Origin: Candidatus Woesearchaeota archaeon
GTDB lineage: Archaea; Nanobdellota; Nanobdellia; Woesearchaeales; SM23-78
Assembly: GCA_019322375.1 (NCBI GenBank)
Contig: JAHWIP010000003.1
Span: 6,792 to 70,791 of the forward strand
Length of the DNA stretch: 64,000 nt
Reading direction: 5' to 3'
This document shows positions 24,531 to 53,682 of this stretch, piece by piece. Position numbers and translations under genes: made by a program. Numbering within the stretch: the stretch's first letter is position 1; every line of letters begins with the position of its first letter. Below the pieces are notes generated by a model that ran no database searches, was not told where the DNA came from, and saw only the letters and a program-made list of their open reading frames with translations.

Positions 24531-24608
24531 CCTTACCTGATATTGCCTGACAGTTGGTGGCTGTTCAATAGAAAATATTTATAAAAAGAACCGGTTTTGT
24601 GTGTTAAG

Positions 24609-25319
24609 ATGGCAAAGAAAAAACATCCCAGAAATATTGATTTACAAAAATATGTTCTGGTATTAGCACTTACAATAATTATCTTTGGCTCAGGAGTGGC
24701 GCTTGGTAACTGGGTTGCTTCAAAAAAATTCACAAGCGTGGAAAACCTGGGCCAGGAACTGAGAACAGACATTATTGCCCTTGAGCTCCAGCAGGACCTT
24801 ATAGAAGCTGACCCTTGCAGGGAAACAGGCCTGGGCCCTCTTTCACAGCAACTTTACACCCTGGGCACAAGGCTGGATTTTATGGAGAGCCGGCTTGGGA
24901 CTAATAACGAGGAGGTTATACGCTTAAAACAGTATTATTCATTAATTGAGATAAGGCACTGGCTTTTTATGAGAGAGATTAACCAGGGATGCAACCAGAG
25001 CAATGTGTTAATACTCTATTTTTATTCCAACCTGAACGACTGTTCTAAGTGCGAGGAGCAAGGATATGTTTTGTCTTATCTTCACAAAAAGCATCCTGAT
25101 GTTATGATTTACTCTTTTGACAAGAACATGAATAATCCTGCTCTTGACACTATCAAAGAAGAATTTAATATCCATCAAGCCCCTACTATTGTGATTAACA
25201 CTGATGCTTATCCTGGCTATCAGAGCAGGAACTTTATAGAAAGAATGATAAGCTATTACCAGGGAGAAGAAGAACGAGAAGAAGAAGCTGTTGAACAGCA
25301 GGAGCAGCAAGAACAATAG
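24609..25319 (+). CDS. Membrane-anchored thioredoxin-fold protein with a CxxC motif
   Basis: N-terminal anchor VLVLALTIIIFGSGVALG. VLILYFYSNLNDCSKCEEQG ... APTIVIN is a Trx-like pattern. Acidic C-terminal tail. Confidence 0.6.
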   Translation: MAKKKHPRNIDLQKYVLVLALTIIIFGSGVALGNWVASKKFTSVENLGQELRTDIIALELQQDLIEADPCRETGLGPLSQQLYTLGTRLDFMESRLGTNNEEVIRLKQYYSLIEIRHWLFMREINQGCNQSNVLILYFYSNLNDCSKCEEQGYVLSYLHKKHPDVMIYSFDKNMNNPALDTIKEEFNIHQAPTIVINTDAYPGYQSRNFIERMISYYQGEEEREEEAVEQQEQQEQ

Positions 25320-31195: not shown

Positions 31196-31633
31196 TTATT
31201 TAAACAGATGTTCTTTTATTTTTTCAATCCTTTTTTGGTTGCATTCTATTATTTCTAATTCACACATATTTATGAATTCATTTATGGTTTCAAGGTTTGG
31301 AGGCTTTGGCTTTTTTAGATAGTACTGTGTGTTAATTCTGTTTTCTTTTAAGCCTTCAAGGAAATCTGTGAATCTTTTGAGTCTTTCATAGTGTTGTGTT
31401 AGAAGAATACTGCATGAATGTATTTCGCTTTTGATCCCATACCTAATGAGTAAAGCAGATAACGCATTGTAGCATGCATAATAAGAGATTATTACCTTCC
31501 AAATAGGATTTTGTCTTTCTATGTTTTCCTGGTCTAATTTTGCTCTTTTAAGGTATGAATCTGAAAGGTTTTTGTTTGGATGAATTAGTTTTATTCCTTT
31601 TGGTTGTTTTAAGCACCATTTTAATTGTTCCAT
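31196..31633 (-). CDS. HEPN-domain protein (partner of the upstream nucleotidyltransferase)
   Basis: 145 aa, helical. YYACYNALSALLIRYGIKSEIHS pattern. 13-nt overlap with the MNT gene. Confidence 0.6.
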   Translation of the reverse strand: MEQLKWCLKQPKGIKLIHPNKNLSDSYLKRAKLDQENIERQNPIWKVIISYYACYNALSALLIRYGIKSEIHSCSILLTQHYERLKRFTDFLEGLKENRINTQYYLKKPKPPNLETINEFINMCELEIIECNQKRIEKIKEHLFK

Positions 31634-32199
31634 TCCAGCACCATTTTTGCGAATTCATTATAATTACCAAACAAGACATGGTTTTTTATTACCTCAACTG
31701 CTAATGTATTCTTGTTTTTATAGAGTTTCCTGAATTCGTTTAAGGTGATGAAATGAGCATGTGCTTTATTAATCTTGCCAAGAATTTTTCGTATTTTTTG
31801 ACTTTTTTTCGCAAAAATTACTAAATCCAAGTCTGAATCTTTTATATTGGTTTTTAAGGCGTGACTCCCGAATATTACAAAATCTGCTTCTTTATGAAGT
31901 TCAGTTAAGATTGGTTTTAATAAAGGGTTTTTCTCTAGGAATTCCAGAGCTCTGTATGTTTCTGTCATTGTAAGGACAAATTCTGTGTTAAGGTTCTTTT
32001 TTAGGAAGTATTGTTTTATTTTTCCTTTAATTTCATAATCAAGAATGTTGTTTTCAACCAGCCCGCTTAGTTCTTTGCTGATTATTTTAATATCTGTCTT
32101 TGTAATCCTTTCTAGTTCTCTCATATAAGCTTCTTTTTTTTCTTTTTCAATAAGAGCCTGCATTATTTTAAAAATATTATTGTTGAATTTATTCATCAT
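31621..32199 (-). CDS. Minimal nucleotidyltransferase (MNT) with an N-terminal wHTH-like region
   Basis: DFVIFGSHALKTNIKDSDLDLVIF matches the GS...D.D nucleotidyltransferase motif. Confidence 0.65.
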   Translation of the reverse strand: MMNKFNNNIFKIMQALIEKEKKEAYMRELERITKTDIKIISKELSGLVENNILDYEIKGKIKQYFLKKNLNTEFVLTMTETYRALEFLEKNPLLKPILTELHKEADFVIFGSHALKTNIKDSDLDLVIFAKKSQKIRKILGKINKAHAHFITLNEFRKLYKNKNTLAVEVIKNHVLFGNYNEFAKMVLEWNN

Positions 32200-32266: not shown

Positions 32267-32626
32267 GGTAGAGCAGTTATAAGCCGCCTTTTGTCAGCCT
32301 CCACGTCTTGCATGGGCAGGCTGTGCTTAACATTCTACTAAGCGTCTCAAAGGACTTGCACCAGTGAGGACTCGCCGTTTCACCCATTCCCATGGCTTAA
32401 AGCGGTCGGGTTGTTAACTCGCGCCCTGTTGCCAGAGTGCTTCATTACCCTCATTCCTATCCATAGGTGGTCTCGTTTCTGAGCCGTTGCCCTGGCTTTC
32501 ACCAGCTAGCTTCCACTAGTCACTTTTCATGGTGGGCGGACTTTCCTAAGCAGAACAAGTCAAAACCGCGCCTTTGAAAGCGCAGGAAATGATAGGTCCT
32601 ACCTGCTGTTAAGCCACTGCCCTACC
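32267..32626 (-). ncRNA. rnpB: RNase P RNA, archaeal type A
   Basis: On the minus strand: P1 pairing GGTAGGGCAGT (5') with ACTGCTCTACC (3'). CR-I GGAAAGTCCGCCC, GGGTGAAACGGCG, and CR-V ACAAAAGGCGGCTTATA. A G+C-rich island with no ORF. Confidence 0.85.
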
Positions 32627-32754: not shown

Positions 32755-33042
32755 ATGGATAAAAAAGCCCAGGGTCTGAGTATGAATGTTATTATAATAG
32801 CAGCAATAGCTCTTTTAGTGCTTATCATTCTTGCTGTTCTTATCCTGAGAGCAGGTAAAGGAGTGACTGAAGGTACAGGGTGCAGAGGTGTTGGAGGAAT
32901 TTGTTATTCTAGCTGCACAGACTTGATTGAGGACAGAGGCGGAATGTGGGTTAAGAATCTTCCTAACAGCGGAAAGAATGGTGGCTGTTCAATAGACCAG
33001 GTTTGCTGTGTTGAACTATTAGAAACACCTGAGGATTACTAA
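32755..33042 (+). CDS. Type IV pilin-like protein with a six-Cys module (paralog A)
   Basis: GAGGTGA lies 6 nt upstream. MDKKAQG-LSMNVIIIAAIALLVLIILAVLIL. Module CRGVGGICYSSC...GGCSIDQVCCVE. Confidence 0.7.
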   Translation: MDKKAQGLSMNVIIIAAIALLVLIILAVLILRAGKGVTEGTGCRGVGGICYSSCTDLIEDRGGMWVKNLPNSGKNGGCSIDQVCCVELLETPEDY

Positions 33043-33044
33043 AA

Positions 33045-33335
33045 ATGAAGTTCTTGAATAATAAGAAAGGAGTCCAGCTAACCCTTTCTACAGTGGTTAT
33101 TGCAGTGCTTGTAATCATTGTGCTCATAGTGTTGATAGTGATTTTTACCCAGGGAACAGGCTTGTTCAACATAGGAATAACCAGCTGCGCTGATAGGGGA
33201 GGTAATTGTAATTACGAATCAGCAGATCAATGCGTTGATACTGGCGGCAGTGTTTACAGGTTTGGCAAGTGCACCGACGGGGTTTGCTGTATTCCTAAGG
33301 ACAAGCTTTCAGGGCAAGATGATAATCAAGACTAA
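33045..33335 (+). CDS. Type IV pilin-like protein with a six-Cys module (paralog B)
   Basis: MKFLNNKKG-VQLTLSTVVIAVLVIIVLIVLIV. Module SCADRGGNCNYESADQC...GKCTDGVCCIP. Confidence 0.7.
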   Translation: MKFLNNKKGVQLTLSTVVIAVLVIIVLIVLIVIFTQGTGLFNIGITSCADRGGNCNYESADQCVDTGGSVYRFGKCTDGVCCIPKDKLSGQDDNQD

Positions 33336-35157
33336 TAAGAAGAGGGCTGAGCTCACTATAACCCAAGTAGTACTCATGGTTCTGGGTGTAGTTGTTCTTA
33401 TTGTGCTGCTTTTTGTTTTGAAAATAATACCCACAGGAATTAGAAGTCTTACGAGCTGCTCTGACTGGGGGCAGTGCAGGCCAGGAAATGTTTGCGCACC
33501 AAATGAATACATAAAATTTGAAGCAAAGGATGACTGTCCTGCAAACCATGTGTGCTGCGTGCCTACAACCACAAGGCCAGGACCTCTTCAGGATTTTAAT
33601 GAAAAAGAGCTTGAATACCTGAGAAATGCTATTATCATAAAGCTTAACAATGACCCTACGCCTATAAGCGATGTAGCAAGCCTTAACTTAAAAGTTGATA
33701 CTAATTATACATTTCGTATAAGTATTAATGATAAGCTCACCAAGGATAAAAAAACAAGTGAAAAGCTTGGCCCTTGCGCTGTTTATGTGGTTGACACAAG
33801 AGAAGCAGGCAAGAAATATTTATTAACAAATAAAGGCTGGGACTTGATTCTTTCTGACAAAGAGATTGATTTGAGCGGCATAGAGCTGGCTGAGTGCACT
33901 GAAGAAAGCATTAGGTTAAAAAAATATTCTCCTTCACTAAATGATGTTTACAAGGACTTGGTGCTGTATGTTATTCTTTTGGATAAGGAAGTTGTTGATG
34001 CACTTGAAGTATTAGAAACACACGACCCTGGCTTTGTTAAACTAACTGCTCCTGGGTTTGGCAGTGGAATTAATCTCCCTGATAGGGGGATGGCAGCTTT
34101 TTATAATCTCACAACAATGTACAGCAATGTTGACCACTGGCTTGCTTACAGAGCCATAAGACTTAATGTTGAGCCAGTAGTCCAGATTAGTGGTATGAGC
34201 GGAATATGGGTTGACAAGGACCCAATAACCATATCCTGCCCTGATGTTACCTGCATCAGGTTTGGCTTAAAACTAGTGAAACTAAAAGACAATGATTATT
34301 TACAGTTGGTAGAAGAGTGCAAGAAGCCAGAAGGCTTTAAGTACACTCTTGATTATGTTGCAGGAACAACAACAAAAACAACAGGCATACCATTGAACAT
34401 TAATATTGGAGGTTTCAGGATTCCTCCTCAAAGACAAAAACTCCAGTACATTGTAAGCCAAAAACCAATAACTGTTGTTAATAATAAAGCAGATGTTTTG
34501 ATTGACAGGGCTACCATGCTAAAAACCTTTTACTCAGGAGACCACGAGTTATTAATCGAGGACACTACTTATCTTTGCGTAGAAGCCACCAAGGATGACG
34601 GCTCAAAGGTTCATGGGCTCTCAGAGCAGCCTATTAAAGTGGATGTTTTTCCGCCCATGGTTGACCCTGACAAGGATGTGCAGTTATTTTATCCAGACCC
34701 AGTGATCTCATCAGACATATCAACCCCTTATTATTACAGGAAGTACCCTAAGATTGTTGTTTCTGGATGCTATGATTATGGCCAGAGCGGATGCACTAAT
34801 TATGATTACTATATTCATTCAGGAGAATTTGTTAATCTAAGGTCTCTGACAGCAGAGTGGGAGATAGGAATTGCTTCTTTGATACTAACAGAGGGCTTGA
34901 ATGCCCTGCTCACTTATTTTGCAGAAAAAGATGCTGTCAACACTATATGCCCGTTTATAACCAGCCATTCTTACACAAGAAACACCCGCAATGAGATAAG
35001 AATCCCAAGGCAAGGGCAGGGCATAATATGCATCAGGGTTAGTGACAAAGTAGGCAACAAAGACATTATCTGGAAGGTGCTCTGGACACCTGAAGAGATG
35101 TTCAAGAAAATTATTGCAGAAGGAGTGGCAGAGGCAGAAGAAGCAGTGACTGGATAG
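33319..35157 (+). CDS. Large pilin-like protein: class III-type N-terminus, six-Cys module, ~530-aa unassigned ectodomain
   Basis: The track start 33235 lies inside the previous gene. ATG 33319 gives MIIKTNKKRA-ELTITQVVLMVLGVVVLIVLLFVL, then SCSDWGQCRPGNVC...DCPANHVCCVP. Confidence 0.65.
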   Translation: MIIKTNKKRAELTITQVVLMVLGVVVLIVLLFVLKIIPTGIRSLTSCSDWGQCRPGNVCAPNEYIKFEAKDDCPANHVCCVPTTTRPGPLQDFNEKELEYLRNAIIIKLNNDPTPISDVASLNLKVDTNYTFRISINDKLTKDKKTSEKLGPCAVYVVDTREAGKKYLLTNKGWDLILSDKEIDLSGIELAECTEESIRLKKYSPSLNDVYKDLVLYVILLDKEVVDALEVLETHDPGFVKLTAPGFGSGINLPDRGMAAFYNLTTMYSNVDHWLAYRAIRLNVEPVVQISGMSGIWVDKDPITISCPDVTCIRFGLKLVKLKDNDYLQLVEECKKPEGFKYTLDYVAGTTTKTTGIPLNINIGGFRIPPQRQKLQYIVSQKPITVVNNKADVLIDRATMLKTFYSGDHELLIEDTTYLCVEATKDDGSKVHGLSEQPIKVDVFPPMVDPDKDVQLFYPDPVISSDISTPYYYRKYPKIVVSGCYDYGQSGCTNYDYYIHSGEFVNLRSLTAEWEIGIASLILTEGLNALLTYFAEKDAVNTICPFITSHSYTRNTRNEIRIPRQGQGIICIRVSDKVGNKDIIWKVLWTPEEMFKKIIAEGVAEAEEAVTG

Positions 35158-36300: not shown

Positions 36301-37197
36301 ATGAACAAGAAAGCCATTGTGTTTGACAAACTCATGACAGCTGTTCTGATAATCATTGTGCTGGCTGTTTTTATTTTTTTCCTGGTAAAGATAAAAATCC
36401 ATGCCTTAAAAATTGTTGAGGATTCTGAGTGCAAAGCAAGCATTATCAGCCATGCAACTCTTTTAAGGGTGACTGGAGAAGACACAACACCAGACATTCA
36501 CTGCCCTACCAAATATTATACTCTTCCAAAAGAAAGCAATGAAGAAATAAAGCATTATATTGCTGATTCATTAAAGACCTGCTGGGGAACCTGGGGCAAA
36601 GGAGAGCTTCAGTTATTTAACCAGCAAGGCTATTACTGCCATGTGTGCTCTGTGATTGATTTTGATGATAAAACAAAAAAAATACAAGGCCTGAACAATT
36701 ACCTGATTAATACGCCAACAGATAAAGATACCCCTCTCACATACATGGACTACCTCACAGGTTATGCATCTGAAAAAGCAGACCCTGCATTAATACAAGA
36801 GGTTCAGGAAAAAGGTTTTTCAGACACCATACACACTTCAAAGCCTTATGCAGTCATGTTTGTTTATGCCAAAGGAAAAACAGGTGTTAAAGCATTTCTT
36901 GATGGCATGGATGCTCTTGGCCTGGGAACAACAGGAGGAGGAATCACTACAGGGCTTGCACTGGGCTCAGCAGCAGGCATAGGGCTGGCAGCAGCAGGAG
37001 TGGCAAGTGGTGGAGCAGCAATTGTTATAGCAGGAGCAGTCACAGCTGCTGGCGGAGTGATAGGCTATATAACAGCAGATGATACTCACTGGATAGCCCT
37101 TACATTGTTCACAGAATACAATGCTGAAACCCTGAAAAGCATTGGGTGCGAGATAGCCCCTGCAAAGCAGGACAGAAAAACTGATGAAACTGGTTAA
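36301..37197 (+). CDS. Pilin-like protein with a Gly/Ala-rich hydrophobic C-terminal segment
   Basis: MNKKA-IVFDKLMTAVLIIIVLAVFIFFLV. C-terminal GLGTTGGGITTGLALGSAAGIGLAAAGVASGGAAIVIAGAVTAAGGVIGYI is glycine-zipper-like. Confidence 0.65.
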   Translation: MNKKAIVFDKLMTAVLIIIVLAVFIFFLVKIKIHALKIVEDSECKASIISHATLLRVTGEDTTPDIHCPTKYYTLPKESNEEIKHYIADSLKTCWGTWGKGELQLFNQQGYYCHVCSVIDFDDKTKKIQGLNNYLINTPTDKDTPLTYMDYLTGYASEKADPALIQEVQEKGFSDTIHTSKPYAVMFVYAKGKTGVKAFLDGMDALGLGTTGGGITTGLALGSAAGIGLAAAGVASGGAAIVIAGAVTAAGGVIGYITADDTHWIALTLFTEYNAETLKSIGCEIAPAKQDRKTDETG

Positions 37198-37280: not shown

Positions 37281-37442
37281 ATGAGTTATGGCATGAACCG
37301 TATGAACAAGAAAGCCCAGGAAACAATGAGTCCTGAAGGCGGCACACTAAGAATAATATGGTTTGTGATTGTCTTATTAGTACTTATTATTATTGTTTAT
37401 TTTGTTGCAACAAATTTTAAACTAATCAAACTGCCATTTTGA
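37281..37442 (+). CDS. 53-aa helix-only micro-pilin-like ORF
   Basis: MSYGMNRMNKKA-QETMSPEGGTLRIIWFVIVLLVLIIIVYFVATNFKLIKLPF. Ends 9 nt before the amidase gene. Below the track cutoff. Confidence 0.4.
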   Translation: MSYGMNRMNKKAQETMSPEGGTLRIIWFVIVLLVLIIIVYFVATNFKLIKLPF

Positions 37443-37451
37443 GGTTAAGAA

Positions 37452-38285
37452 ATGAAGCTGATAAATGCTATTGGTGCCATTGTTTTAGGATTGTTTGTAT
37501 TAATTATACTAATCCTGATATTTGTTCCAAACACATTCAAAATTGTTAATAATATCTTTCTTATTATTGGCCAACAATTAGGCTTTAACCCAGCAGTTCC
37601 TGGAGGTGAAGACTATGGCTTTGGAGGGCTTTATGGAAGCACACCATCAACTATTCCAACTGATGCTGAGCCAGAGCGTATTAAAAAAGTCAAAACAAAG
37701 CCAGGCATTCCTGTTGATGAAAAATATTTTGGAGAGCTCTACTCTTATTCCAGGGAAGGAGCACTTGTTGACACCATTGTACTGCACCACACAGGGGATA
37801 ATAAAGCTTCGCAAACATTCAATACTCTGAAAAAAAGAGAGCTTTCAGTGCATTATGTTGTTGACAAGGACGGCACAATATATTACTTGATAGATGAGAG
37901 CACAAAAGGCGCTCATTGCGGTTGCTGCCCGCCAAGCAACCCGACTTGTTGCAAAGCAGGAGAAAACTGTCCTGTTTGCCTGAATGAAGAATTAAGAGAA
38001 ATGAATGCCAAATCAATAGGCATTGAAATTGTTAACACAGGATATGCAGATGATTACTACACTAATGAGCAATATGTTTCAATAGATAAACTGATAAATG
38101 ATATTGCAAGCAGATGGACTGCTATTGCTGTTGATAATGAGCATGTGCTTGGGCATTACCAGATTACACTGGGTAAGTGGGATCCTTCACCTGTTTTTAA
38201 ATGGGCAAGAATACAAGGATTGTCAGGCCACTTAATGCTTGCAGACATAGGAAAAAAAGCACCCTCTGAATACGGCTATACATGA
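37452..38285 (+). CDS. Membrane-anchored N-acetylmuramoyl-L-alanine amidase (Amidase_2 / PGRP fold)
   Basis: N-terminus MKLINAIGAIVLGLFVLIILILIFV. Catalytic-domain pattern IVLHHTG ... SVHYVVDKDGTIY ... AKSIGIEIVNTG ... VLGHYQITLGKWDPSPVF (GH....K.DP..F). Cys-rich insert CGCCPPSNPTCCKAGENCPVC. Confidence 0.7.
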   Translation: MKLINAIGAIVLGLFVLIILILIFVPNTFKIVNNIFLIIGQQLGFNPAVPGGEDYGFGGLYGSTPSTIPTDAEPERIKKVKTKPGIPVDEKYFGELYSYSREGALVDTIVLHHTGDNKASQTFNTLKKRELSVHYVVDKDGTIYYLIDESTKGAHCGCCPPSNPTCCKAGENCPVCLNEELREMNAKSIGIEIVNTGYADDYYTNEQYVSIDKLINDIASRWTAIAVDNEHVLGHYQITLGKWDPSPVFKWARIQGLSGHLMLADIGKKAPSEYGYT

Positions 38286-39154: not shown

Positions 39155-39808
39155 TTGTTAACAAAATCAAGAAAAGGACTTTCCCTTTTAGGAATGCTTG
39201 GTGGTGTAATCATAGTAGTTGTACTGGTTATTGTTCTAATCAATATTTTCATTAACAGAGGAGCCAAGCCTCTGGAGAACATCACTGGAGAGATAATTAC
39301 CTGCGGAGGACTTGCAGGTGTTATTGGCGGGGGAGAAGGGGTTTGTATAAGCAAAAGCACTCTTTGCGACGGCCCAAAGCTTCCTAATCCTGAGTGCAAG
39401 GCTAGCAATCCTGACAAGCCTTATTGCTGTTTTAAACAAGCAGAGGGTGCTGAAGGCCCTCCTGGTTCTGGCCCGACGGCTTGTGTTAAGGATGTTGACC
39501 CCTGGGAACCTGTAATTGTTGAAGACGATTATGTTTGCGCTTCTAGTAAGGAGGCGTGCGAGCAGACTATGAATTTTGTTAATGTTCTGAATGAATGTGC
39601 TCAATTTAGTGAAGGTTGTGAATGCAAGGATGAAGTAGAAGGAATTGAGCACCCTTGTGAAGGCAATCTTAAATGGGCTCTTTTTGGCCTTGATAAATCT
39701 GAGCCTAAACATGAAGTTGTTATGAAATGCTATCCTGCTGTTAAGGAATGCGAGGATTCAAATGAATGTGAGCGTTGTGTTCCAAACCATTTTGAATGTG
39801 CAGAATAA
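39155..39808 (+). CDS. Type IV pilin-like Cys-rich protein with a six-Cys module
   Basis: TTG start with AAAGGTGA 6 nt upstream. LTKSRKG-LSLLGMLGGVIIVVVLVIVLINIF. Module TCGGLAG...GVCISKSTLC...PECKASNPDKPYCCFK. Confidence 0.6.
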   Translation: MLTKSRKGLSLLGMLGGVIIVVVLVIVLINIFINRGAKPLENITGEIITCGGLAGVIGGGEGVCISKSTLCDGPKLPNPECKASNPDKPYCCFKQAEGAEGPPGSGPTACVKDVDPWEPVIVEDDYVCASSKEACEQTMNFVNVLNECAQFSEGCECKDEVEGIEHPCEGNLKWALFGLDKSEPKHEVVMKCYPAVKECEDSNECERCVPNHFECAE

Positions 39809-41113: not shown

Positions 41114-41596
41114 ATGAGTTTTTATGATTTTAATAACAAGAAAGCCAGGAGCATGATTGCAACTTCTTTTTATGTATTATTTGGCTTGATGCTGGGAGCC
41201 TTTTTTGTGATAGCTGTTCTTGGAAGAGTTAAGGATGCTGTTGGTGATTCTGCTTATCATAAAAAGTTTTATTCCAGGGACCTGGCCTTGCTTGTTGATG
41301 CCTTGCATGCCAGCAATGGAAAGTTTGTTGTTGATTATGATGTTAATCTTCCAGACAACATGCTCCTGGACTTTGGTCTTGAGCCTGGAGCAGTCATCTT
41401 AACAGACCGCTCTGACACACTCATGGATAACAGGCATAAAACTGCTTTTTTGTTTGGGCATAATGATTATGTAAAAATAATTCCTGTCACAATTGACAAG
41501 AACATGCTTAAATTGTTAGTGGTGGCTGATAACAACACCATTACATTTGAAGAGAAAGGGATGGATGATTTAAGTACAAATGATAAAGAGGAGTGA
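41114..41596 (+). CDS. Pilin-like protein
   Basis: MSFYDFNNKKA-RSMIATSFYVLFGLMLGAFFVIAVLG. Confidence 0.55.
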   Translation: MSFYDFNNKKARSMIATSFYVLFGLMLGAFFVIAVLGRVKDAVGDSAYHKKFYSRDLALLVDALHASNGKFVVDYDVNLPDNMLLDFGLEPGAVILTDRSDTLMDNRHKTAFLFGHNDYVKIIPVTIDKNMLKLLVVADNNTITFEEKGMDDLSTNDKEE

Positions 41597-41629: not shown

Positions 41630-42169
41630 ATGAGAATAATAAAAAAGAGGCTGAGCCTGAATAACAAAAAGGGGTTGGGAACTGAGGAGTGGCTTGAACT
41701 TCTGCCTTACATAGTGTTAACAGTGGTTGTAATGGTGGCTATTTTTGCCCTGATAAACCTTTTTGTTAATATTTCTGTTGATGTTAAGCCTGTTCAAAGG
41801 GAAGTTCTTTTCTACAGGCTGATGTATGCTCCTAACTCAATTATGTATATGGATAATCTTACTGGCAGGGTTCACCCTGGTGTTATTAGCTGGGATAATT
41901 TTACCAACCAGACCCTTGACAAATCTATTGCTTATGATTATGAAAGGCATATATCTGCAAAATTGATATTATATAACCTGGAAAAAGAGCCAATCAAAAC
42001 AGCTTATCTTAATGGGCTGTGGTTTAACCGCTTAGAGCCTTTGGCCAGGAGCAGGATTAAGGGTGCAGGCAGTGCAGAGCTCTACACCAAGAAAATCCCT
42101 GTTGTTTACAGGAGAAATGATGTGAACAGGGCAGGCTATCTTAAAGTTGAGATTATCATTCCAAACTAA
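41630..42169 (+). CDS. Pilin-like protein
   Basis: MRIIKKRLSLNNKKG-LGTEEWLELLPYIVLTVVVMVAIFALINLF. Confidence 0.55.
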   Translation: MRIIKKRLSLNNKKGLGTEEWLELLPYIVLTVVVMVAIFALINLFVNISVDVKPVQREVLFYRLMYAPNSIMYMDNLTGRVHPGVISWDNFTNQTLDKSIAYDYERHISAKLILYNLEKEPIKTAYLNGLWFNRLEPLARSRIKGAGSAELYTKKIPVVYRRNDVNRAGYLKVEIIIPN

Positions 42170-42184
42170 CAGCGAGTGATTTGA

Positions 42185-42853
42185 ATGAGCAGTTTGATTA
42201 ATTCAAGAAAAGGCATGAAAACCATTGTGACAATATTATCAGTTGTCTTGTTAGTATTCATATTCATAATATTTATTTTTCTTTTCAGGCTTGGCGCCAG
42301 GAACAAGGCAGAAAGCATAGAATCAGATTTTTCCTCTGTAAGAACAGAGTTTTTGCTTAAAACCTTTTTAAGAACACCAGCTGTTATTAGTGATGATTAC
42401 CCTGTTGAAGACTTGTTCCCTGGCATAGGAGAAGGCATTACCAATGCAGACCTGGTATCATGGACATGTAGTAAGGATAAAGACAGGAATTACAAGACCT
42501 TGAAAAACTCAATAAACACTTTTTTTGATGAGGCATATGAAGATGACTGGGAAGCATGGATAATCTATTCTAATCCTAAAGTAAAAAAGAAGGGCTTTGG
42601 GCACAAGAGTTATCTTGAAGGGATTGAGAAAAGCATAAACCGCTTGCTAACAGCAGGACAGCTGGCTTTGCTAGCAGCCAAATCATCAGACCCAGCCAGC
42701 AGGGGATTAATCTTCAAGCTTTTTATAACTCCTTATCGTGAAGCAGGCTTTGGCTCCCAGGTGGTTCCTTGCCCAGACGGAGAACTAGCCCAGATAATGC
42801 TTTACTCCCACACAGCATTTATTGAAATAAAACACCTGAAAGGCTTAACATAA
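42185..42853 (+). CDS. Pilin-like protein
   Basis: MSSLINSRKG-MKTIVTILSVVLLVFIFIIFIFLF. Confidence 0.55.
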   Translation: MSSLINSRKGMKTIVTILSVVLLVFIFIIFIFLFRLGARNKAESIESDFSSVRTEFLLKTFLRTPAVISDDYPVEDLFPGIGEGITNADLVSWTCSKDKDRNYKTLKNSINTFFDEAYEDDWEAWIIYSNPKVKKKGFGHKSYLEGIEKSINRLLTAGQLALLAAKSSDPASRGLIFKLFITPYREAGFGSQVVPCPDGELAQIMLYSHTAFIEIKHLKGLT

Positions 42854-42865
42854 GATAAAATAAAA

Positions 42866-45800
42866 ATGGATAAAGTAAAACTGAGATTAAAAAACAGAAA
42901 AGCACAGGTTTACCCGCTTTTTGTAGTGGTCTTTACAATAGTGGCCTTGACAACAGCCCTTATTGGCTTGAGCAATGCAAAAGAGGTTACTGATTTATCT
43001 GGCAGGGAAATGCTTATCGGCACCAAGCAATCAGCTGTTTTTGCATCTCTTCAAGACGCAGATGCTGTTAGTTTATTCATAGAGCAGGCAGCAGAATTTG
43101 CAGGCCAGCAAGCCCTGGATAAAATAAGAAAATCATGCTTTTTTGGAGTTGATGAGGAACAAGAAGTTGATGAGTGGGAGTCTCCATGCGGCAAGTTTGT
43201 TTATCCTCTTTGGAGCACTAATGAAAATCTTTGCCTTCCTGATTGTGAAACAGCTTTTGTCAATGCCTTTAACAAGGATTTTTTAAGCCGAACAAACAAG
43301 TATTATGAGTTCACAAACATAGAGCTGCCTATTTCTTATAACATGAGCCTGGAAATACATGACAATCATTTTTTTGTTCATGGAACCTCTGACACAGAAC
43401 TAAGGATTAATGTGGTTGATATTCAGAGCAGGATTAAGTCTCCCCTGGCAATAGCCCAGACTTATGAGGAAGGCAGGCTTATCTGGCCTGTTGATTACTC
43501 TGACCACACAATCACCTCTTGCTTTGGTGAAAGAGATGTTGTTGGGGGGAGCAAATACCATCCTGCTGTTGATATCCGGGCTCCAAAAGGAACACCAGTG
43601 CTGGCAGCTGCTTTAGGAAAAGTGATTCTTACTGACCCTTGCTGGGGAAGAATTGTTATTAATCATGGCTCTGGCTTAAGCACAGAGTATCTTCACTTGG
43701 AAAAAATTGATGTTAAGGTTAATGATGATGTGGTGCAGGGACAAAGAATAGGAACTTCTGGCAGCAATGGCTGTGACACAAGAGAGTTTGTTCCGCACCT
43801 GCATTTTGGGGTTATATATCAAGGTGTTCAGTCACCCATGCATTATAAAGGGCAGGAAATAGTTTTGAGCAACAACCATATCCAGCCCATGTGCTTGATT
43901 GAAAAAGGGTATGCTGCTAAGCCAGAAAGCAACTGCAACCAGCTTGTGAACACAGACTTAGACAAGATTTGTGAATTGTATAATCTGCCAGAAGAATTTT
44001 TTGAATCATCAGAATCATCAAAGCCATCAGAGCCATCAGAACCAGACCAAGACACTTCTTCTGAAGAAAGTGCTGATGCAGAGAATGCTGGTGCAGAAAG
44101 TGTTAATGCAGAAAGCACTGAGCTGGATTATTCTCTGGCACAGGCTCCTGGCAGCTATGCTTTTAAACCATCTTTTACCTTGAGGGTTAACAAGAAAATA
44201 GAAAACCCTATTGAGCCAGTAACAGAGTGGTTTGAGAACACCTGGAACGAGTGCGAGGATGACCCTTGGAAATGTTTAAGAGAAAAAATGAGTGAGTTTA
44301 ATGAGCAGGACTATGATTACAAGCTCATGTTTGCTGACAGGTGCGAGGAAGGCTATCACTTGTTCTATGACATACTGGAGTTTTTTGAGGACTGCTTTTC
44401 AAACCAGAAGTATGGGTGCTCATGCGAGTTTAATTTATCAGATGCTTTTTCAATAACTGACTTGCGAATAGTTTTTGACACACAAGCAAACACAGCCTCT
44501 CTTTTTTCCAAGCAGGGAGATAAGCCTGGTGATGAATATGAATTAATTGATTCATACCAGTTCTATTATGGAAGCATAACCAAGCCAGCCCCTGCTTCTC
44601 CTTATAGGTATTATGTGTATCAGCTTGATTATGATGATTATGGGGAGCTGGAAAATGCAGAGCTTATGCAAATGAAGTCATTGCTTGATGTATTTGATGT
44701 TGTGCCTTTTTTTGATTACAAAGAACTAAGACTGGCAAAGCCAGGAGAGGCTGAGCAAGGATATTTTGTGAACACAGAAACAATTCAGTGCAAGTACAAG
44801 AAGAACAAGTTCAGGCTGTGTGCAAAGCCAGCACAGGAAAGAGAAGACTTGTTCCCTATAAGGTTTGCTTTTCACTTAAAAGACAAGCCTCCTGAGCCTG
44901 TTAAAAAAGGAGATGTGGAAATTATAGAGGTGGAGGAGAGTTCTGAGTCAGATGTTGACAAGGTAATGCAGGCAGCAGGCTTTCTAGGAACCATATTCCC
45001 TCCTCTAGGCTACTTGTTCACAGCAATTAATATTCTCAGTGTGTTGGAAGACTTTAAACCAAGAAAGTTCGAGGTAATAGTTGATGTTCCTCTTGACAAG
45101 GATGGCAAACCCCTGGATGTTGCTGGCTATGAAGTTTATTGCAGTGATTACCTGACAAACATCCTGCCAGTGGATGTTTTGGATAAATATAATCCAAGTC
45201 ATTTTGTTGTGATGGCTAATGATGAGATGAATAAAAAAGTAAGCCAGCTAGACCAGTATGTTAAGAAGAACCCTTACACAGACTTTCTGAATCTTGAGAG
45301 CTGTGATGTGCCTGTGAGCAAGTTCACAGGAGAAACCATTCTTGTGCCTGGAATCAAAGGGGTTGTTAAGGACGGTAAAATGGTTTTCAACCTTCATAAA
45401 TGCGGGGACTTGGCAATAATTATAGATAAACTAATAAGAAAAGACTACTGTGTATCACTAATACCTGTTGACAAGAATGGCAACAAGATAATGGAGCATG
45501 CTGTGAGCAACTGCGCGCAAACCAATTCACTGCTTGACCTGGTTATTAGTGAGATGATAGAGGAACAGCTAGGAGAATTTATTCCTGCAAGCCTTATACC
45601 TGATAATTTAAAGCCTTATATCAAGCTGCCTGACACAAGCGATATTGTTAATGCAGTAACAGGGGAAGGCAGTTTTGACATGATAGACATTGTTAATCTT
45701 GACAAGCTGGACGCAGACATAAAAAATTATCTTGAGGAATTCGTGGTTGGAACTATTAATGAAGACATAATAGGCACTTCTGTTGTTAATTCTATTGATG

Positions 45801-46639
45801 ACTTAAAGCTCTGGGAAAAACAAACAGTGCTTAACACCCTGTCAAACCAGATAAAAAATGATGATGCAAAAACCTTGTTTGATGCCTTTGTAACAGGAGA
45901 AGGTGTTGCTGAGTCTGCCAAGCGCATGGCTTATGAAAAAGGAGTAGGATATATAGACCAGACAAAAACACCTGAGATACTTAAGGAGATAGCCAAAGGA
46001 GAAGACCCTAAAAGCCTTGCATACCAGGAACTGGTAAAAGCAGCTGAGAAAGAGCTCAGCACTGACGAGAAAAAACAGGCTCTGCTGGAGATAGCCAGGA
46101 GCAGCAGTGGAAGAGAGGTAAAAGATAAGATAATAGAAAAAGCCCTTGAAAAAGGATGCGGCGAGTCATATGGAATAAGTGCAGAGCAGGCAATCAACTG
46201 CCTTGACAATGAAGAGGTAGAAAATATTTATCACAAAGTTCTGACAGACTACAGCACACCAGACAAGGTAAAACAGTTTTTGCTTGACAAGGCAATTGAC
46301 AAGTTTGATGAAAAAACACCAGACGTGCTAAAAGAGATTGTTCTGAAAAGAGACTTTAAAGGAGCAGCAAAGGACATGCTTGAGAAAGAGCTTGACAAGC
46401 TTCCAGACGCTGTTAAGAAAGAGTTTATTACTGATATACTTGAAGGCAGGCTTCCAGATGTTGAGTACTTGCAGCAGGAACTAGTGAAAATGATACCAGC
46501 AGTAAACAATGAATATGTGAATGCCCTGCTAAAAGACGGCAATGTTAAAAACCTGATAGAATCAACCCTTAAATCAGAGATAGAAAAACAACTAGGCTCA
46601 TTCTTCTCAGATGAATGCGTGGCAATTAATAAGGATTGA
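42866..46639 (+). CDS. Giant (1257-aa) pilin-like protein with an M23 (LytM-type) metallopeptidase domain
   Basis: KNRKA-QVYPLFVVVFTIVALTTALIGL N-terminus. M23 motifs YHPAVDIRAP (HxxxD) and PHLHFGV (HxH) at about nt 43478-43841. Acidic S/E linker, an internal hydrophobic segment at about nt 44972-45046, and a K/E-rich repetitive helical C-terminus. Confidence 0.7.
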   Translation: MDKVKLRLKNRKAQVYPLFVVVFTIVALTTALIGLSNAKEVTDLSGREMLIGTKQSAVFASLQDADAVSLFIEQAAEFAGQQALDKIRKSCFFGVDEEQEVDEWESPCGKFVYPLWSTNENLCLPDCETAFVNAFNKDFLSRTNKYYEFTNIELPISYNMSLEIHDNHFFVHGTSDTELRINVVDIQSRIKSPLAIAQTYEEGRLIWPVDYSDHTITSCFGERDVVGGSKYHPAVDIRAPKGTPVLAAALGKVILTDPCWGRIVINHGSGLSTEYLHLEKIDVKVNDDVVQGQRIGTSGSNGCDTREFVPHLHFGVIYQGVQSPMHYKGQEIVLSNNHIQPMCLIEKGYAAKPESNCNQLVNTDLDKICELYNLPEEFFESSESSKPSEPSEPDQDTSSEESADAENAGAESVNAESTELDYSLAQAPGSYAFKPSFTLRVNKKIENPIEPVTEWFENTWNECEDDPWKCLREKMSEFNEQDYDYKLMFADRCEEGYHLFYDILEFFEDCFSNQKYGCSCEFNLSDAFSITDLRIVFDTQANTASLFSKQGDKPGDEYELIDSYQFYYGSITKPAPASPYRYYVYQLDYDDYGELENAELMQMKSLLDVFDVVPFFDYKELRLAKPGEAEQGYFVNTETIQCKYKKNKFRLCAKPAQEREDLFPIRFAFHLKDKPPEPVKKGDVEIIEVEESSESDVDKVMQAAGFLGTIFPPLGYLFTAINILSVLEDFKPRKFEVIVDVPLDKDGKPLDVAGYEVYCSDYLTNILPVDVLDKYNPSHFVVMANDEMNKKVSQLDQYVKKNPYTDFLNLESCDVPVSKFTGETILVPGIKGVVKDGKMVFNLHKCGDLAIIIDKLIRKDYCVSLIPVDKNGNKIMEHAVSNCAQTNSLLDLVISEMIEEQLGEFIPASLIPDNLKPYIKLPDTSDIVNAVTGEGSFDMIDIVNLDKLDADIKNYLEEFVVGTINEDIIGTSVVNSIDDLKLWEKQTVLNTLSNQIKNDDAKTLFDAFVTGEGVAESAKRMAYEKGVGYIDQTKTPEILKEIAKGEDPKSLAYQELVKAAEKELSTDEKKQALLEIARSSSGREVKDKIIEKALEKGCGESYGISAEQAINCLDNEEVENIYHKVLTDYSTPDKVKQFLLDKAIDKFDEKTPDVLKEIVLKRDFKGAAKDMLEKELDKLPDAVKKEFITDILEGRLPDVEYLQQELVKMIPAVNNEYVNALLKDGNVKNLIESTLKSEIEKQLGSFFSDECVAINKD

Positions 46640-46755
46640 TAAAGCTAATTCTTGCAACAAAAAGCCCATCCTGTGAATTATCCGGCTCTACTATGGAAAA
46701 GTTTTTAAAAAACCCCTCAGTTGTTCTTTTGAAAGAGTTATTAGGGTGGTATTTA

Positions 46756-48078
46756 ATGATTAACATGCCTTTAGAACAGATTAAGAGCAGGATTTCTGAA
46801 AAAACAGGCTTGTCAGATGAGGAGCTGGATGACAAGATTAAGGCTAAGCTTAAGCAGTTGTCAGGGCTTATTTCTGAGCAAGGAGCTGCTCATATAATTG
46901 CTAATGAGCTTGGTGTGAAGCTGTTTGAGATTGGTGAAAAGCTCCAGATAAAAAATGTGTTGACTGGCATGCGCAATGTTGATGTTGTTGGCAAGATACT
47001 GCAGAAATACGAGCTTAGAGAGTTTCAGACAGAAAAGCATTCTGGAAAGGTTTCTAACATGCTCATAGGTGATGAGACAGGTGTTATTCGTGTTGTTATG
47101 TGGCACAAGCAGGCAGAGAATATTAATAGTGTTAAAGAAGGAGATGTGGTCAAGATAAGAGGTGGCTATGTAAGGGATAACCAGGGCAGAAAAGAAATTC
47201 ATCTGAGCGAGCTCTCAAAATTCATTATTAATCCTCCTGGTGTTGAAGTAGAAGCAAAGCCTTATGAGCGCCCTGTTGCTGTTAGAAAGAGCATTGCTGA
47301 TATAAAAGAAGATGATGCTAGTGTTGAAATCTTAGCCACTATTGTGCAGGTGTTTGATATAAACTTTTTTGAGGTGTGCCCGCAGTGCAGCAAGAGGATA
47401 AGGCTTGGGGACCAAGGCTTTTTATGCCCGACCCACAGTATTGTGGAGCCGGATTATAATTATGTATTAAACCTTTACCTTGATGATGGAAGTGATAATA
47501 TAAGAGCTGTTTTCTGGAGGCAGCAGGCAGAGCAACTATTAGATATGGACAAATCCAAGGTAATGGTTTTTAAAGATGACCCTGCCAAGTTTGAGCCAAT
47601 AAAAACAGAGCTCCTGGGAAATATTATTTTGGTGAGTGGAAGAGCTAATAAGAATCAGAACTTTGACAGGATTGAGCTGGTTGCTAATAAGATTGACAAA
47701 AGCCCTGACCCTGATGAAGAGATAAAGAAGTTAAAACAAGAAGCAGACAAAGCAGTTGCGCAGGATGAAGGTGGGGATGAAGAGCAACAGAAATCGAAGA
47801 TTTCTGAGGGTTCCTACGGAACCGAAGAGGAAATAAAGCAGGAAGTAGCTGGTGGGGATGAAGAGGAAGAGATTAAGCAAGAGGAAGTAAAGGCAGAGGA
47901 AATTAAGGAAGAAGAACCTGTTGAAGAGGAAGTAAAAGAAGAAAAAATAGAAGAAGAGCCTATTAAAAAGAAAACAAAAGAAAAAGAAGATTCATTGCTC
48001 GCTCGCCAAGGCTCGCGAGAAAGCCAGGATGACTTAGAAAACCTTGACCTGGATAAAGAGTTAGAGGATATTGAGTGA
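46756..48078 (+). CDS. Replication protein A-like ssDNA-binding protein (OB folds plus Zn ribbon) with an acidic tail
   Basis: ATG 46756/46765 (MINMPLEQIKSRISEKTGLSDEELDDKIKAKL) is preferred over the track start. CPQCSKRIRLGDQGFLCPTH zinc ribbon lies between OB-like segments. E-rich C-terminus. Confidence 0.65.
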   Translation: MINMPLEQIKSRISEKTGLSDEELDDKIKAKLKQLSGLISEQGAAHIIANELGVKLFEIGEKLQIKNVLTGMRNVDVVGKILQKYELREFQTEKHSGKVSNMLIGDETGVIRVVMWHKQAENINSVKEGDVVKIRGGYVRDNQGRKEIHLSELSKFIINPPGVEVEAKPYERPVAVRKSIADIKEDDASVEILATIVQVFDINFFEVCPQCSKRIRLGDQGFLCPTHSIVEPDYNYVLNLYLDDGSDNIRAVFWRQQAEQLLDMDKSKVMVFKDDPAKFEPIKTELLGNIILVSGRANKNQNFDRIELVANKIDKSPDPDEEIKKLKQEADKAVAQDEGGDEEQQKSKISEGSYGTEEEIKQEVAGGDEEEEIKQEEVKAEEIKEEEPVEEEVKEEKIEEEPIKKKTKEKEDSLLARQGSRESQDDLENLDLDKELEDIE

Positions 48079-48091
48079 ATTAAAAATGTAC

Positions 48092-50200
48092 TTATCTTAC
48101 AACCCTGTCAAGACCAGCTTTTATAAAGGGCTCTTTTAATTTGTTTAATGCTTTTAATTCAATCTGTCTTATTCTTTCCCTGGTAACTTTGAATTCTATA
48201 CCAACTTCGTCCAAGGTATGGAAATTATACTTACCAATTCCAAAGCGCATGTAAAGAATTTTAATTTTTCTTTTACGGTCAGGATCCTTTTTAAAAGTGT
48301 CATGGATAACTTTTCTGACCTGATAACCTACTAATGATTGTGCAGCAGCATGTTCAGTATCAGCTTTTGGATCCTCAACAAGCTCACCTATTTCAACCTC
48401 TACTTCTTCTCCTATTGTTGTTGATAGTGAGATTGGTTTTTCAGCCCATTTTTTATACTTCTCAACTCTTTCCTCAGCAACATTCATTTCTTTAGCAACT
48501 TCTTCTGTTGTTGGCTCTCTGCCTAACCTGCCAAATAATTTCCTGGCAATTCCCAAGTACTTGTTTATTTTTTCCACTGAATGCACAGGAGTCCTGATAG
48601 TCCTTGCCTGGTCTGCTATAGCCCTTGTTATTGACTGTTTAATCCACCAAGTAGCATATGTTGAAAATTTATACCCTCTTCTGTATTCCCAGCTGTCTAT
48701 TGCTCTTAGAGCTCCCATGTTTCCCTCCTGAATCAGGTCAGTAAATTCCATACCCCTGTGCTGGTATTTTTTTGCTATACTCACAACCAGTTTTGTATTT
48801 GAACTTGCAAGCTCATTTTTGTTAGATATAAGCTCATCATGAAGCTTTTCTATTTCAGGGCTAACAGGGTCAAGATGAGGAAATATTGATTTGTAAGTTT
48901 CATAAGTTTTTTTCCAGTATTTTTTTTTGAATTTAAGTTTGCTAAGAAGCTTTTTCAGTGCAAAATCTCCTTTTTCTTTGGCATTATGAAAGTTCTCTAT
49001 AAATTCTATTTTTTCCCGAGCAGTCTTCTCATAACCTTTCCAAAGTCGTACTATTTCATCCGGGTGATTTATTTTAATAGCCTTTTCTATATCTTTTACA
49101 ACATAATCAACCAGGCATTCTGGCTTCTTATTGTCGCCTTGCAGGGAGCGCTCTTCAGACAATCCATTGTACAAGAAATTCCTGCTCTCAATTGTTTTGA
49201 ACTCATTAAACAGTTCTGTTAAGTATTTTGTTACAAACAAGTATTTTCCTAGAAAAGATTTTAGGGCTTTCTCCCTTCTTTTCTCAGCCTTTTCAAACTT
49301 TTTTTTGAAGACGTTCACATCTTCACAACAAATAATATCTTCAAGGTCTTTTCCCTTGTTTTCAAGGGTTTCATCCAAGCTTTCACCATGTTTTTTATTC
49401 AAGGCTTCCTGGGCTTCCAGGGCTTCATTAATATCCTTTCTTATTTTATTTAAGATATATTTTTTCTCAATAATATGCTTGAATATTTCTTCTCTTTTCT
49501 GCTCTATTTTTTTTCCAAAAGCATATTCCTGCTCTCTTGTTAGCAAGGCGTGCTTGCCCATGGAACTTAAAATAAAACTTGTTTCACTGCCAATATATGT
49601 CTTTCTCAAGTCTACTTTATCCTCCTCAAGGTCAGAGTACTCTTTTATCAAGAACTTATAATTATCATTAAAAATCTTATTTTTGTTTTCCAGAGCAGTT
49701 CTGTGCATGTCAAGAAGCAAGTTATAATAGAACTTTCTAACATCTGCCCTGTCATATTTTTTTCCATAGTCTAACTTAACAGGGTCGACATACCTGCTTA
49801 GTATAATGTCATGTTTTTTCATGTATGGGTCTCCGAATTCTTTTGGAGTCTTGGTTTCAATCTCTCTTTTTTTTTGCATCAGGTATGCCATAAATCCCCT
49901 TAACGAGATATAACTGTCTCTGTTTATATAGTCCAGGCAGAAAAAAGGATTTTTCTTAGCAAGCTTGATAAGAGCGCTGTTTTCAATATGAAATACTTTA
50001 GCAAGGTCAGCTGTTCTGAGCCTTTGGGAGTATCCAACTTCTTGTTTTAGAACAGAACCTTTTTGTATCAGGTCAAGAAAGAATTTTGAATCCATCTCTA
50101 TGTTTTCCCAGACAGAGGCTCCGAATTTTTCTTTGATTTGAGCAGGGCGCAGGTATATACCTTTGCTCTCTTCTAGAAAAGCATGGGCTGCTTCTTGCAT
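48092..50200 (-). CDS. Bacterial-type sigma-70 family protein (regions 1.2, 2, 3, 4) with a long N-terminal extension
   Basis: [53 protein letters not shown] (regions 2.1-2.4), [14 protein letters not shown] (1.2-like) and [18 protein letters not shown] (4.2 HTH). Confidence 0.8.
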
Positions 50201-53223: not shown

Positions 53224-53682
53224 ATGATGTATATAACCCATATGGCAGTTGCATTATTTGCAGGGCTTTTAAAAGTAAAAATAATCCCTTTGCCCATAAA
53301 CAAATATGTTTTTCTATCAATCGTGGTGGTATCAGCTCTTCTGCCAGACATAGATTATGACTCATTCATAGCCAGGAAACTAAAACTAAGATTTGTGCGT
53401 TTCTTTTTTGCACACAGAGGCTTTTTCCACAGCATCCTGCCCATGGTATTCTTTATGATACTAGCCTTTTTAATCACAGGCAATCCTTACTACTCCTTAG
53501 CTGTTCTGATAGGCTTTGGCTCCCACCTGGCCTTTGACAGCATAACCATGAAAGGAATAGCATGGTTCTGGCCAAGCAAACTAAGAGCAAAAGGCCCCTT
53601 AAAAACAGGAGGAATAGTAGATTGGATACTGCTGTTAGTATTTATACTAATGGATGCAGTGATGGTGGTGGTTGTTTTCTGA
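53224..53682 (+). CDS. YdjM-like membrane-bound metal-dependent hydrolase (DUF457 family)
   Basis: LPDIDY, HRGFFHS and GSHLAFDSITMKGIAWFWP motifs within four TM helices. Confidence 0.6.
   Translation: MMYITHMAVALFAGLLKVKIIPLPINKYVFLSIVVVSALLPDIDYDSFIARKLKLRFVRFFFAHRGFFHSILPMVFFMILAFLITGNPYYSLAVLIGFGSHLAFDSITMKGIAWFWPSKLRAKGPLKTGGIVDWILLLVFILMDAVMVVVVF

Follow-up and report, generated by a model that had tools for sequence, protein, structure and literature searches.

Directly behind the N-terminal helix of several pilin-like proteins of a Candidatus Woesearchaeota archaeon, a short stretch of six cysteines that ends in a CC doublet recurs in genes of one cluster, and this raises the question of what kind of domain it is and why it is joined to a pilin-like N-terminus. 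The genes lie in a window of 64,000 nucleotides (64 kb; contig JAHWIP010000003.1 of assembly GCA_019322375.1, positions 6,792 to 70,791 of the forward strand), which is the whole stretch of DNA that was analysed. Four proteins, called P1 to P4 here, carry such a stretch (Table 1). Judged by profiles and predicted structures, the module looks like a 40-50-residue mini-domain of the beta-defensin (trans-defensin) structural type, whose three disulfides would form in vivo. As to its role, there is about an even chance that this knot serves as the head of mini-pilins and as a helix-proximal adaptor in the larger protein P3, within a filament of type-IV-pilin-like kind that is linked to attack on bacterial cell walls.

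Copies of the module in the window and in related archaea

An earlier note on this DNA had placed the six-Cys module in at least four genes. Searched with a loose regular expression for six Cys of which the last two form a doublet, the six-frame translation of the 64 kb gave four matches, in P1, P2, P3 and P4 only. All four stretches were present on the plus strand at the positions given by that note, each about 10 residues beyond a hydrophobic helix led by K/R-[AG]. Residue-shuffled open reading frames (ORFs) gave a mean of 0.27 matches with a maximum of 3, and shuffled P1 or P2 contained the pattern in about 0.05% of the trials. With four matches observed against 0.27 in shuffled ORFs, a chance origin of the pattern was ruled out. 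The spacing formula first proposed was too narrow for P1 (x3 and x23), P2 (x7 and x4) and P4 (x14 and x9).

Homology of the Cys positions stood for three of the four proteins. When the P1-family and P2-family profiles were compared over the module alone, with the helices taken out, all six Cys aligned (hhalign, probability 97%, E 4e-11), and the P3 module matched the P1-family module profile (probability 94.6%, E 6.7e-8). On the contrary, P4 reached a probability of only 0.6% (E 0.099) against the module profile, with Cys 1 and 4 out of register, and the search for P4 homologues returned nothing but P4 itself. P4 was therefore dropped as a supported copy, its resemblance being one of pattern alone. 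On this profile evidence the six-Cys module is homologous in P1, P2 and P3, P4 is a look-alike, and three of the genes initially claimed hold. Another candidate, the 242-amino-acid (aa) protein that has a different four-Cys stretch after its helix, was rejected as a copy at 4 bits against the module hidden Markov model (HMM).

P1 and P2 are identical to the NCBI entries KY348_00435 and KY348_00440, two hypothetical proteins of Candidatus Woesearchaeota archaeon. At least 161 homologues of P1 were found. Exactly six Cys are present in 129 of the 134 proteins obtained from the searches with P1 and P2, nearly all of them 78-100 aa long, and of 224 short family proteins, 207 had all six Cys columns aligned. 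When 1.84 billion representative proteins were searched with a helix-free profile, 134 matched at E<=1e-3, about 90 of them short proteins with the same build. One genome of each GTDB species was scanned as well; this yielded 118 relatives, from which 79 loci were kept (below, related loci bear L-numbers and family proteins from the searches P0-numbers, e.g. P0106). The titles of these 79 loci name Woesearchaeota, Nanoarchaeota, Nanobdellota or Pacearchaeota, besides some records auto-labelled 'uncultured Methanosarcinales', and the archaeal family with helix and module is restricted to Woesearchaeota/Nanoarchaeota-type archaea. With more than 160 proteins and a helix-plus-module gene in 71 of the 79 species loci (at least two in 57, at least three in 39), the family is a large one, most of its members being 80-100 aa long and arranged in tandem.

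The module had also been taken for a common head or adaptor, and its distribution bears this out: it makes up the whole head of the ~95-aa proteins and is helix-proximal in P3 as well as in 17 proteins of more than 300 aa from related loci, while 156 of the 189 helix-plus-module genes encode at most 130 aa. Many related loci encode P3 orthologues that are 580-690 aa long and carry the module, and the gene order P1-P2-P3 is repeated in related loci. The C-terminal ~530 aa of P3 are without known domain, and a sequence search of PDB with P3 gave no match. At one related locus (L028:10767-11948, plus strand), a cluster protein contains two tandem six-Cys modules in mid-protein, and the module is therefore used internally too; from its Gly/Ala-rich C-terminal segment, this protein is taken as the counterpart of the window gene 36301-37197. 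Apparently outside archaea, the module was found as tandem repeats in metagenomic proteins. P0138 has nine of them N-terminal to a GH25 lysozyme, and P0149 and P0151 are lipoprotein-like proteins, bacterial in look, with four to six. Literature searches on pilins, cysteines or defensins of Woesearchaeota and DPANN archaea, on a beta-defensin fold in archaea and on the Pfam family DUF6719 returned nothing that describes this family.

Fold class and likely disulfide pairing of the module

The module-only profile, searched against PDB, matched six sequences at E<=10, every one of beta-defensin fold, namely three versions of the tick carboxypeptidase inhibitor (TCI), platypus Int-DLP, human beta-defensin 6 and platypus DLP-1. 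The best match was the C-domain of TCI (E 6.8e-5), with the six Cys all in register. Structure prediction, suggested in the earlier note, gave confident AlphaFold models of beta-defensin-type fold. Full-length P1 reached a predicted local distance difference test score (pLDDT) of 84.5, with a helix at residues 7-41 followed by strand, helix, strand and strand, and the P1 module alone reached 82.8. The predicted model contains a three-stranded antiparallel sheet and is structurally similar to solved members of the beta-defensin fold. Foldseek returned no meaningful match of the module model in PDB, as expected because the domain is so small.

Beta-defensins likewise have six Cys ending in CC, with the arrangement C-x6-C-x4-C-x9-C-x6-CC to be compared with 6-7-12-4-0 in P2 and 5-5-13-5-0 in P3. 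Also shared are a Gly at the second residue ahead of Cys 2, in many cases a G-x-C motif at Cys 4, and the predicted three-stranded sheet. P1 differs from beta-defensins by a 23-residue C3-C4 loop with an extra helix. Moreover, the beta-defensin fold is known from animals whereas the module is archaeal, and a beta-defensin is a free secreted peptide whereas the module is fused to a pilin-like signal and helix. Trans-defensins, among which are vertebrate beta-defensins, big defensins, platypus DLPs, crotamine and the clip-like and TCI-like domains, have been described only from animals, and from bacteria only cis-defensins (PMC11561630). Common descent or convergence would fit the likeness, and the two cannot be told apart.

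Curated families gave a more distant picture. The scan of family members produced sub-threshold Pfam matches to Inhibitor_I68, Defensin_beta_2, Defensin_int and Defensin_big. Inhibitor_I68 reached 16.6-18 bits against a cut-off of 25 in two members scanned individually, and the window proteins P1-P4 had no defensin-family match in Pfam at all. In the exhaustive profile search, mosquito proteins built from numerous CLIP_1 repeats scored highest, along with one protein each of a shrimp and a moth. The arthropod clip domain (Pfam CLIP_1, PF18322) shares the six-Cys disulfide pairing of defensins, and it differs in that it precedes a serine-protease domain in animal immune cascades. The module profile scores high on the mosquito proteins when summed over their repeats, of which there are up to 17 of clip type; the window proteins gave no match to CLIP_1, the likeness showing up only in the opposite direction, with the module profile as query and insect proteins as targets. 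As for DUF6719 (PF20477), a distant P1 homologue with helix and six Cys (P0134, 85 aa) passes its threshold with 27.9 against 27 bits, P0131 lies just under the cut-off, and the cluster is built alike, with an NlpC/P60 protein at its end, whereas P1-P4 (no match at E<=1) and nearly all other members do not match. By these scores, DUF6719, a family of no known function, is a distant branch of the module family.

The small disulfide-rich domain described in the earlier note is thus supported. The same note could place it in no named family and gave a match to a well-known domain as grounds for refutation. By that yardstick its claim is refuted in part, since profile, predicted structure and pair-loss variants point to the beta-defensin fold, all matches to it, however, staying below curated thresholds and occurring in an unprecedented context.

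Variants that have lost cysteines bear on the pairing of the six. After alignment to the module HMM, three variants were found to be without both C3 and C6 (P0106, L030:9914 and L070:9998) and two without both C2 and C4 (L011:10300 and L014:10254). Such joint losses are what is expected of a C1-C5, C2-C4, C3-C6 pairing as in beta-defensins. This pairing is likely; it is graded so, and not as shown, because the sample is small and the lineages few. It was argued from the Cys-loss variants and the TCI alignment. The TCI sequence in the module alignment came from the PDB search, and the human beta-defensin sequences aligned with it serve as illustration only. Two other fold classes were rejected, the knottin (inhibitor cystine knot) because the CC doublet is C-terminal in all members and not in mid-framework (C-C-CC-C-C), and the cis-defensin (CS-alpha-beta) fold because a CxxxC in the helix paired with a CxC in the last strand was not found.

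The pair-loss variants also bear on whether the Cys bind a metal (zinc or an iron-sulfur cluster) instead of forming disulfides. Six invariant Cys within 40 residues, in an organism that probably lives without oxygen, would suit such a site. However, the CxxC pairs typical of zinc ribbons and Fe-S sites are absent, the C2-C3 spacing ranges from 3 to 11, and the Cys are lost in disulfide-type pairs. In addition, the domain is predicted to be extracellular and all of its sequence and fold matches are disulfide-bonded proteins, which leaves metal binding hardly credible.

A membrane-anchored thioredoxin-like protein with a CSKC motif is encoded elsewhere in the window (Table 1), and it is a possible candidate, from its sequence, for an extracellular thiol-disulfide oxidoreductase acting on many Cys-rich surface proteins. 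At the related locus L001, a neighbouring gene (405-1109) that is non-orthologous to it has a weak Thioredoxin_4 match.

The closest solved relative by sequence being TCI, the knot could also be a protease inhibitor of that type. TCI acts via its free C-terminal tail right after CC, whereas in the family the tail after CC-[VI]-P-L is variable in length and sequence and often acidic. This variability disfavours TCI-type inhibition, no carboxypeptidase is encoded nearby, and an inhibitor role is very improbable.

The charge of the heads is informative in its turn. They are acidic, with a mean net charge of -4.3, and positive in only 2% of 129. This tells on the proposal that the proteins are archaeal defensin-type antibacterial peptides, anchored or released, that kill as beta-defensins do, a proposal that can draw on the beta-defensin-like Cys framework and fold and on the clustering of the genes with bacteriolytic enzymes. 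Membrane-active defensins are cationic, however, and the domain stays joined to a long hydrophobic helix, with no evident propeptide or release site. Neither the net positive charge nor the free mature peptide of a functional beta-defensin was found. A membrane-active antimicrobial role is unlikely since the heads are acidic and attached to the hydrophobic helix, and killing in the manner of beta-defensins appears improbable.

Pilin-like N-termini and peptidoglycan hydrolases

The [KR][GA] motif is the cleavage motif of archaeal class-III signals. In the family, the leader M-x-[KR][KR][AG]-Q-G-L-S occurs in almost all members, with [KR] at position 3 in 125, [KR] at position 4 in 123 and [AG] at position 5 in 127 of 129 proteins, and it is followed by a hydrophobic helix of at least about 20 residues, as in proteins of the class-III type. 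The helix is conserved above the head, the mean major-residue frequency being 0.84 against 0.43 for non-Cys head positions; the word-based homologue search favours the conserved helix, yet the ~90 short proteins recovered by the helix-free profile mostly carry this helix too. In the window, the [KR][AG] leader and helix are present in 13 of 14 consecutive plus-strand genes between 32755 and 46639, the gene of the terminal M23 protein included. The amidase has a plain N-terminal hydrophobic anchor without [KR][AG] leader.

A basic [KR][GA] leader, a conserved helix and a small variable head are also the marks of archaeal type IV pilins and class-III-signal proteins (e.g. the short Epd pilins of Methanococcus) and of bacterial modular pilins. 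Type IV pilins likewise come as paralogues in a row, accompanied by larger proteins with the same N-terminus and extra domains. The head of known pilins is a beta-sandwich or an alpha-beta roll, whereas here it would be a disulfide knot. P1/P2-type proteins are plausible candidates for the major filament subunit in view of their gene position at the start of the cluster, the K-K-[A/G] leader and a helix that is conserved above the head.

Mini-pilin genes head same-strand clusters that are often ended by a peptidoglycan hydrolase. In single-sequence searches, at least 28 of the 79 species loci had peptidoglycan hydrolase domains downstream and on the same strand; none had them upstream. Pfam and NCBIfam scans of P1-P4 and the other cluster proteins of the window gave amidase and M23 domains only. 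In the terminal protein, the M23 domain (lysostaphin-type peptidoglycan endopeptidase) spans residues ~231-321, and the NCBIfam M23 peptidoglycan hydrolase models agree. The terminal large protein of relatives has M23 plus SLT, SLT alone, or NlpC/P60. When 35 more large proteins from downstream were scanned with Pfam, SLT (5), Amidase_3 (2), glucosaminidase (2), muramidase, Amidase_2, M15 and NlpC were added. The terminal protein of the cluster is of the same kind as the large murein-hydrolase proteins of Woesearchaeota/Pacearchaeota (Castelle et al. 2021, PMC8204110), and for the large Woesearchaeota murein hydrolases an action on the walls of bacteria has been put forward (PMC8204110, PMC12352652). 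Neither of these papers links them to pilin-like clusters, and PMC8204110 makes no mention of pili or pilins; the pilin-like N-termini and the knot-headed clusters come from the present analysis.

The hydrolases in the window, at L001, L003, L005 and L006 and at many of the loci L007-L085 have an N-terminal hydrophobic helix and lie at the end of pilin-like clusters, and the M23 protein and the large terminal proteins of relatives also have the pilin-like [KR][AG] leader. From lineage to lineage the catalytic domain is exchanged (M23, SLT, NlpC/P60, Amidase_2/3, glucosaminidase, muramidase, M15), and what looks conserved is the N-terminal portion of the large terminal protein.

If the proteins build a filament, their precursors would be inserted with the K/R-rich N-terminus in the cytoplasm, and cleaved after K-K-[A/G] by a class-III signal peptidase. 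The highly conserved hydrophobic helices would form the core of a thin filament or pseudopilus, and the acidic disulfide-locked knots would cover its surface, where such a tiny three-disulfide head should be stable and protease-resistant. Larger cluster proteins, M23 peptidase included, would join via the same helix, and P3 also via the same knot. The archaeon would in this manner confront a bacterium, be it partner or prey, with adhesin domains and with domains that cut peptidoglycan. Here we infer signal cleavage, filament assembly, disulfide formation in vivo and the bacterial target.

Several points weigh against such a filament with defensin-like heads. The fourth copy, P4, is unsupported. 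No Pilin_N, Class_IIIsignal or other curated pilin model was matched in Pfam or NCBIfam, and Flp1_like gave weak matches only, to the N-termini of P2 and of the amidase (E 0.018-0.067). Pfam scans of the window ORFs, together with a crude scan for Walker-A/B and A24 motifs in 7184 ORFs of the window and of 85 related loci, revealed no secretion ATPase, no platform protein and no prepilin peptidase, either in the 64 kb or up to 10 kb from any of these loci. DPANN archaea with type-IV-filament machineries have been reported, and their pilin genes can lie far away (bioRxiv 10.64898/2026.04.22.720090), for which reason the missing machinery near the cluster is not decisive. Regarding the fold, no curated Pfam defensin-type threshold was passed (Defensin_beta_2, best E 5e-5), the pair-loss evidence consists of five sequences from perhaps two or three lineages, and AlphaFold may have learnt the defensin pattern. 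Finally, Woesearchaeota are mostly anaerobes, and extracellular disulfides would need an oxidising system, for which there is a candidate at most.

The lack of assembly genes near the loci and of pilin HMM matches would be natural if the proteins, instead of being filament subunits, were surface proteins anchored by a single N-terminal membrane pass, and if their knot recognised a component of the envelope of bacteria (peptidoglycan, lipid II or another glycopolymer) and thereby directed the hydrolases of the cluster. This explanation gains some weight from the nine modules of P0138, which stand before the GH25 lysozyme in the place that cell-wall-binding repeats take in lysins. The tandem modules of the bacterial-looking, lipoprotein-like P0149 and P0151, the tight link of the clusters to peptidoglycan hydrolases and the binding of lipid II by some defensins speak for it as well. 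On the other side, a plain anchor is not expected to be the most conserved part of a protein or to have a near-invariant K-K-[A/G] leader, and two to five tandem paralogues next to larger proteins with the same N-terminus are the usual layout of major and minor pilins. Anchored binders without a filament, the main alternative to the filament and different from it in polymerisation only, are, on balance, rather unlikely. Filament assembly and envelope binding are compatible, and the heads could do both.

A bolder version of the filament, to be held as tentative and more probably wrong than right, would be a Woesearchaeota-type DPANN structure with true trans-defensin heads that acts as a scaffold for pilin-tethered peptidoglycan hydrolases and whose knots may bind the bacterial envelope. 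If true, this would be the first trans-defensin fold outside animals, pointing to a prokaryotic root for the beta-defensin/clip/TCI fold or to a striking convergence, and it would reveal by what organelle a large group of uncultured archaea, which may live on bacteria, makes contact. An archaeal family with the trans-defensin Cys framework, the predicted fold and a likely pairing, together with bacterial-looking repeats, reopens the question of where the fold originated. Woesearchaeota are abundant, uncultured and of unknown hosts, and the hydrolase-ended pilin-like cluster is a candidate apparatus for touching or attacking bacteria. Many archaeal peptidoglycan hydrolases are without recognised Sec or Tat signal (PMC12352652), and the class-III-type N-terminus of the M23 protein may explain such missing signals, the amidase here having its plain anchor. 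As pilins with a folded head, the mini-pilins would be some of the smallest, and they would be the first with a disulfide-knot head. Pilin-like architecture and defensin-like fold are each known singly; what appears to be undescribed is that the two are fused, that the fusion occurs in archaea and that it heads a peptidoglycan-hydrolase cluster.

Gene cluster and other features of the window

Table 1. Coordinates of the cluster, of the six-Cys stretches and of further genes, as positions within the window.
Feature	Position	Strand	Description
TATA-like signal of P1 gene	32687-32694	+	TTTAAATA; putative, read from sequence
Shine-Dalgarno-like signal of P1 gene	32742-32749	+	GAGGTGAT; putative, read from sequence
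P1, mini pilin-like protein	32755-33042	+	95 aa; leader MDKKA(QG), hydrophobic helix (model residues 7-41), six-Cys head
P1 six-Cys module	32881-33009	+	C-x6-C-x3-C-x23-C-x5-CC (spacing 6-3-23-5-0)
P2, mini pilin-like paralogue	33045-33335	+	96 aa; leader ending in NKKG, followed by VQLTLS
P2 six-Cys module	33186-33290	+	C-x6-C-x7-C-x12-C-x4-CC (spacing 6-7-12-4-0)
P3, modular pilin-like protein	33319-35157	+	612 aa; leader KKRA followed by ELTIT, helix, six-Cys module, ~530-aa C-terminal region
P3 six-Cys module	33457-33558	+	C-x5-C-x5-C-x13-C-x5-CC (spacing 5-5-13-5-0)
Three genes with KKA leader and helix	35322-36299, 36301-37197, 37281-37442	+	without six-Cys module; no Pfam/NCBIfam family
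N-acetylmuramoyl-L-alanine amidase (Amidase_2), N-terminally anchored	37452-38285	+	Pfam PF01510, E 4e-25; NCBIfam AmpD-like
Pilin-like protein with different four-Cys stretch after helix	38353-39081	+	242 aa; leader KKKKG followed by LSTLG
P4, pilin-like protein	39155-39808	+	217 aa; leader SRKG followed by LSLLG
P4 pattern stretch	39302-39430	+	spacing 14-6-9-9-0; C...CC pattern without profile support
Four genes with [KR][AG] leader and helix	39873-41027, 41114-41596, 41630-42169, 42185-42853	+	no family matches
Terminal protein with Peptidase_M23	42866-46639	+	1257 aa; leader NRKA followed by QVYPLF, helix; Pfam PF01551, E 1.8e-21
Thioredoxin-like protein, membrane-anchored	24597-25319	+	CSKC motif; weak TraF (thioredoxin-fold) match, E 0.0055
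HEPN and nucleotidyltransferase gene pair	31196-32199	-	typical toxin-antitoxin layout
Archaeal RNase P RNA	32269-32573	-	Rfam RF00373, 121 bits
RPA-like OB-fold gene	46636-48078	+	directly after the terminal hydrolase gene
Sigma-70 factor, bacterial type	48092-50200	-	702 aa; regions 1.2, 2, 3, 4
HATPase_c_3 protein	50267-52498	-	743 aa; N-terminal GHKL ATPase domain
YdjM gene	53224-53682	+	
Protein without recognisable domain	54265-57738	+	1157 aa
Peptidase_C25 (gingipain-like) protein	58923-61412	-	829 aa; MopE-type metal-binding motif

Within the cluster, the shortest of the three KKA-leader genes (37281-37442) is a head-less pilin-like ORF of 53 aa that consists of leader and helix only. 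Small called genes of 37-64 aa recur in the related clusters L001, L003, L005 and L006, as taken from the gene calls.

The surroundings are archaeal, with genes for the nascent-polypeptide-associated complex and Sec61-beta (both assigned by synteny with L001), an RPA-like OB-fold protein, RadA, tRNA-splicing endonuclease and Hjc. The GC-rich non-coding stretch before P1 is due to the RNase P RNA, which lies directly upstream of the cluster on the opposite strand; the HEPN and nucleotidyltransferase pair stands between it and Sec61-beta. On the other flank, a sigma-70 factor of bacterial type is encoded in this archaeal genome and is adjoined by the gene of the GHKL ATPase protein. Sigma-70 is prevalent in Woesearchaeota, without known anti-sigma partner (PMC8204110). 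The Peptidase_C25 protein and the 1157-aa protein are probably further surface proteins. Finally, the RPA-like OB-fold gene directly after the terminal hydrolase gene, with a YdjM gene nearby, is found both in the window and in the distant relative L003 (17299-19094), an arrangement that is a conserved synteny without obvious functional link to the hydrolase.

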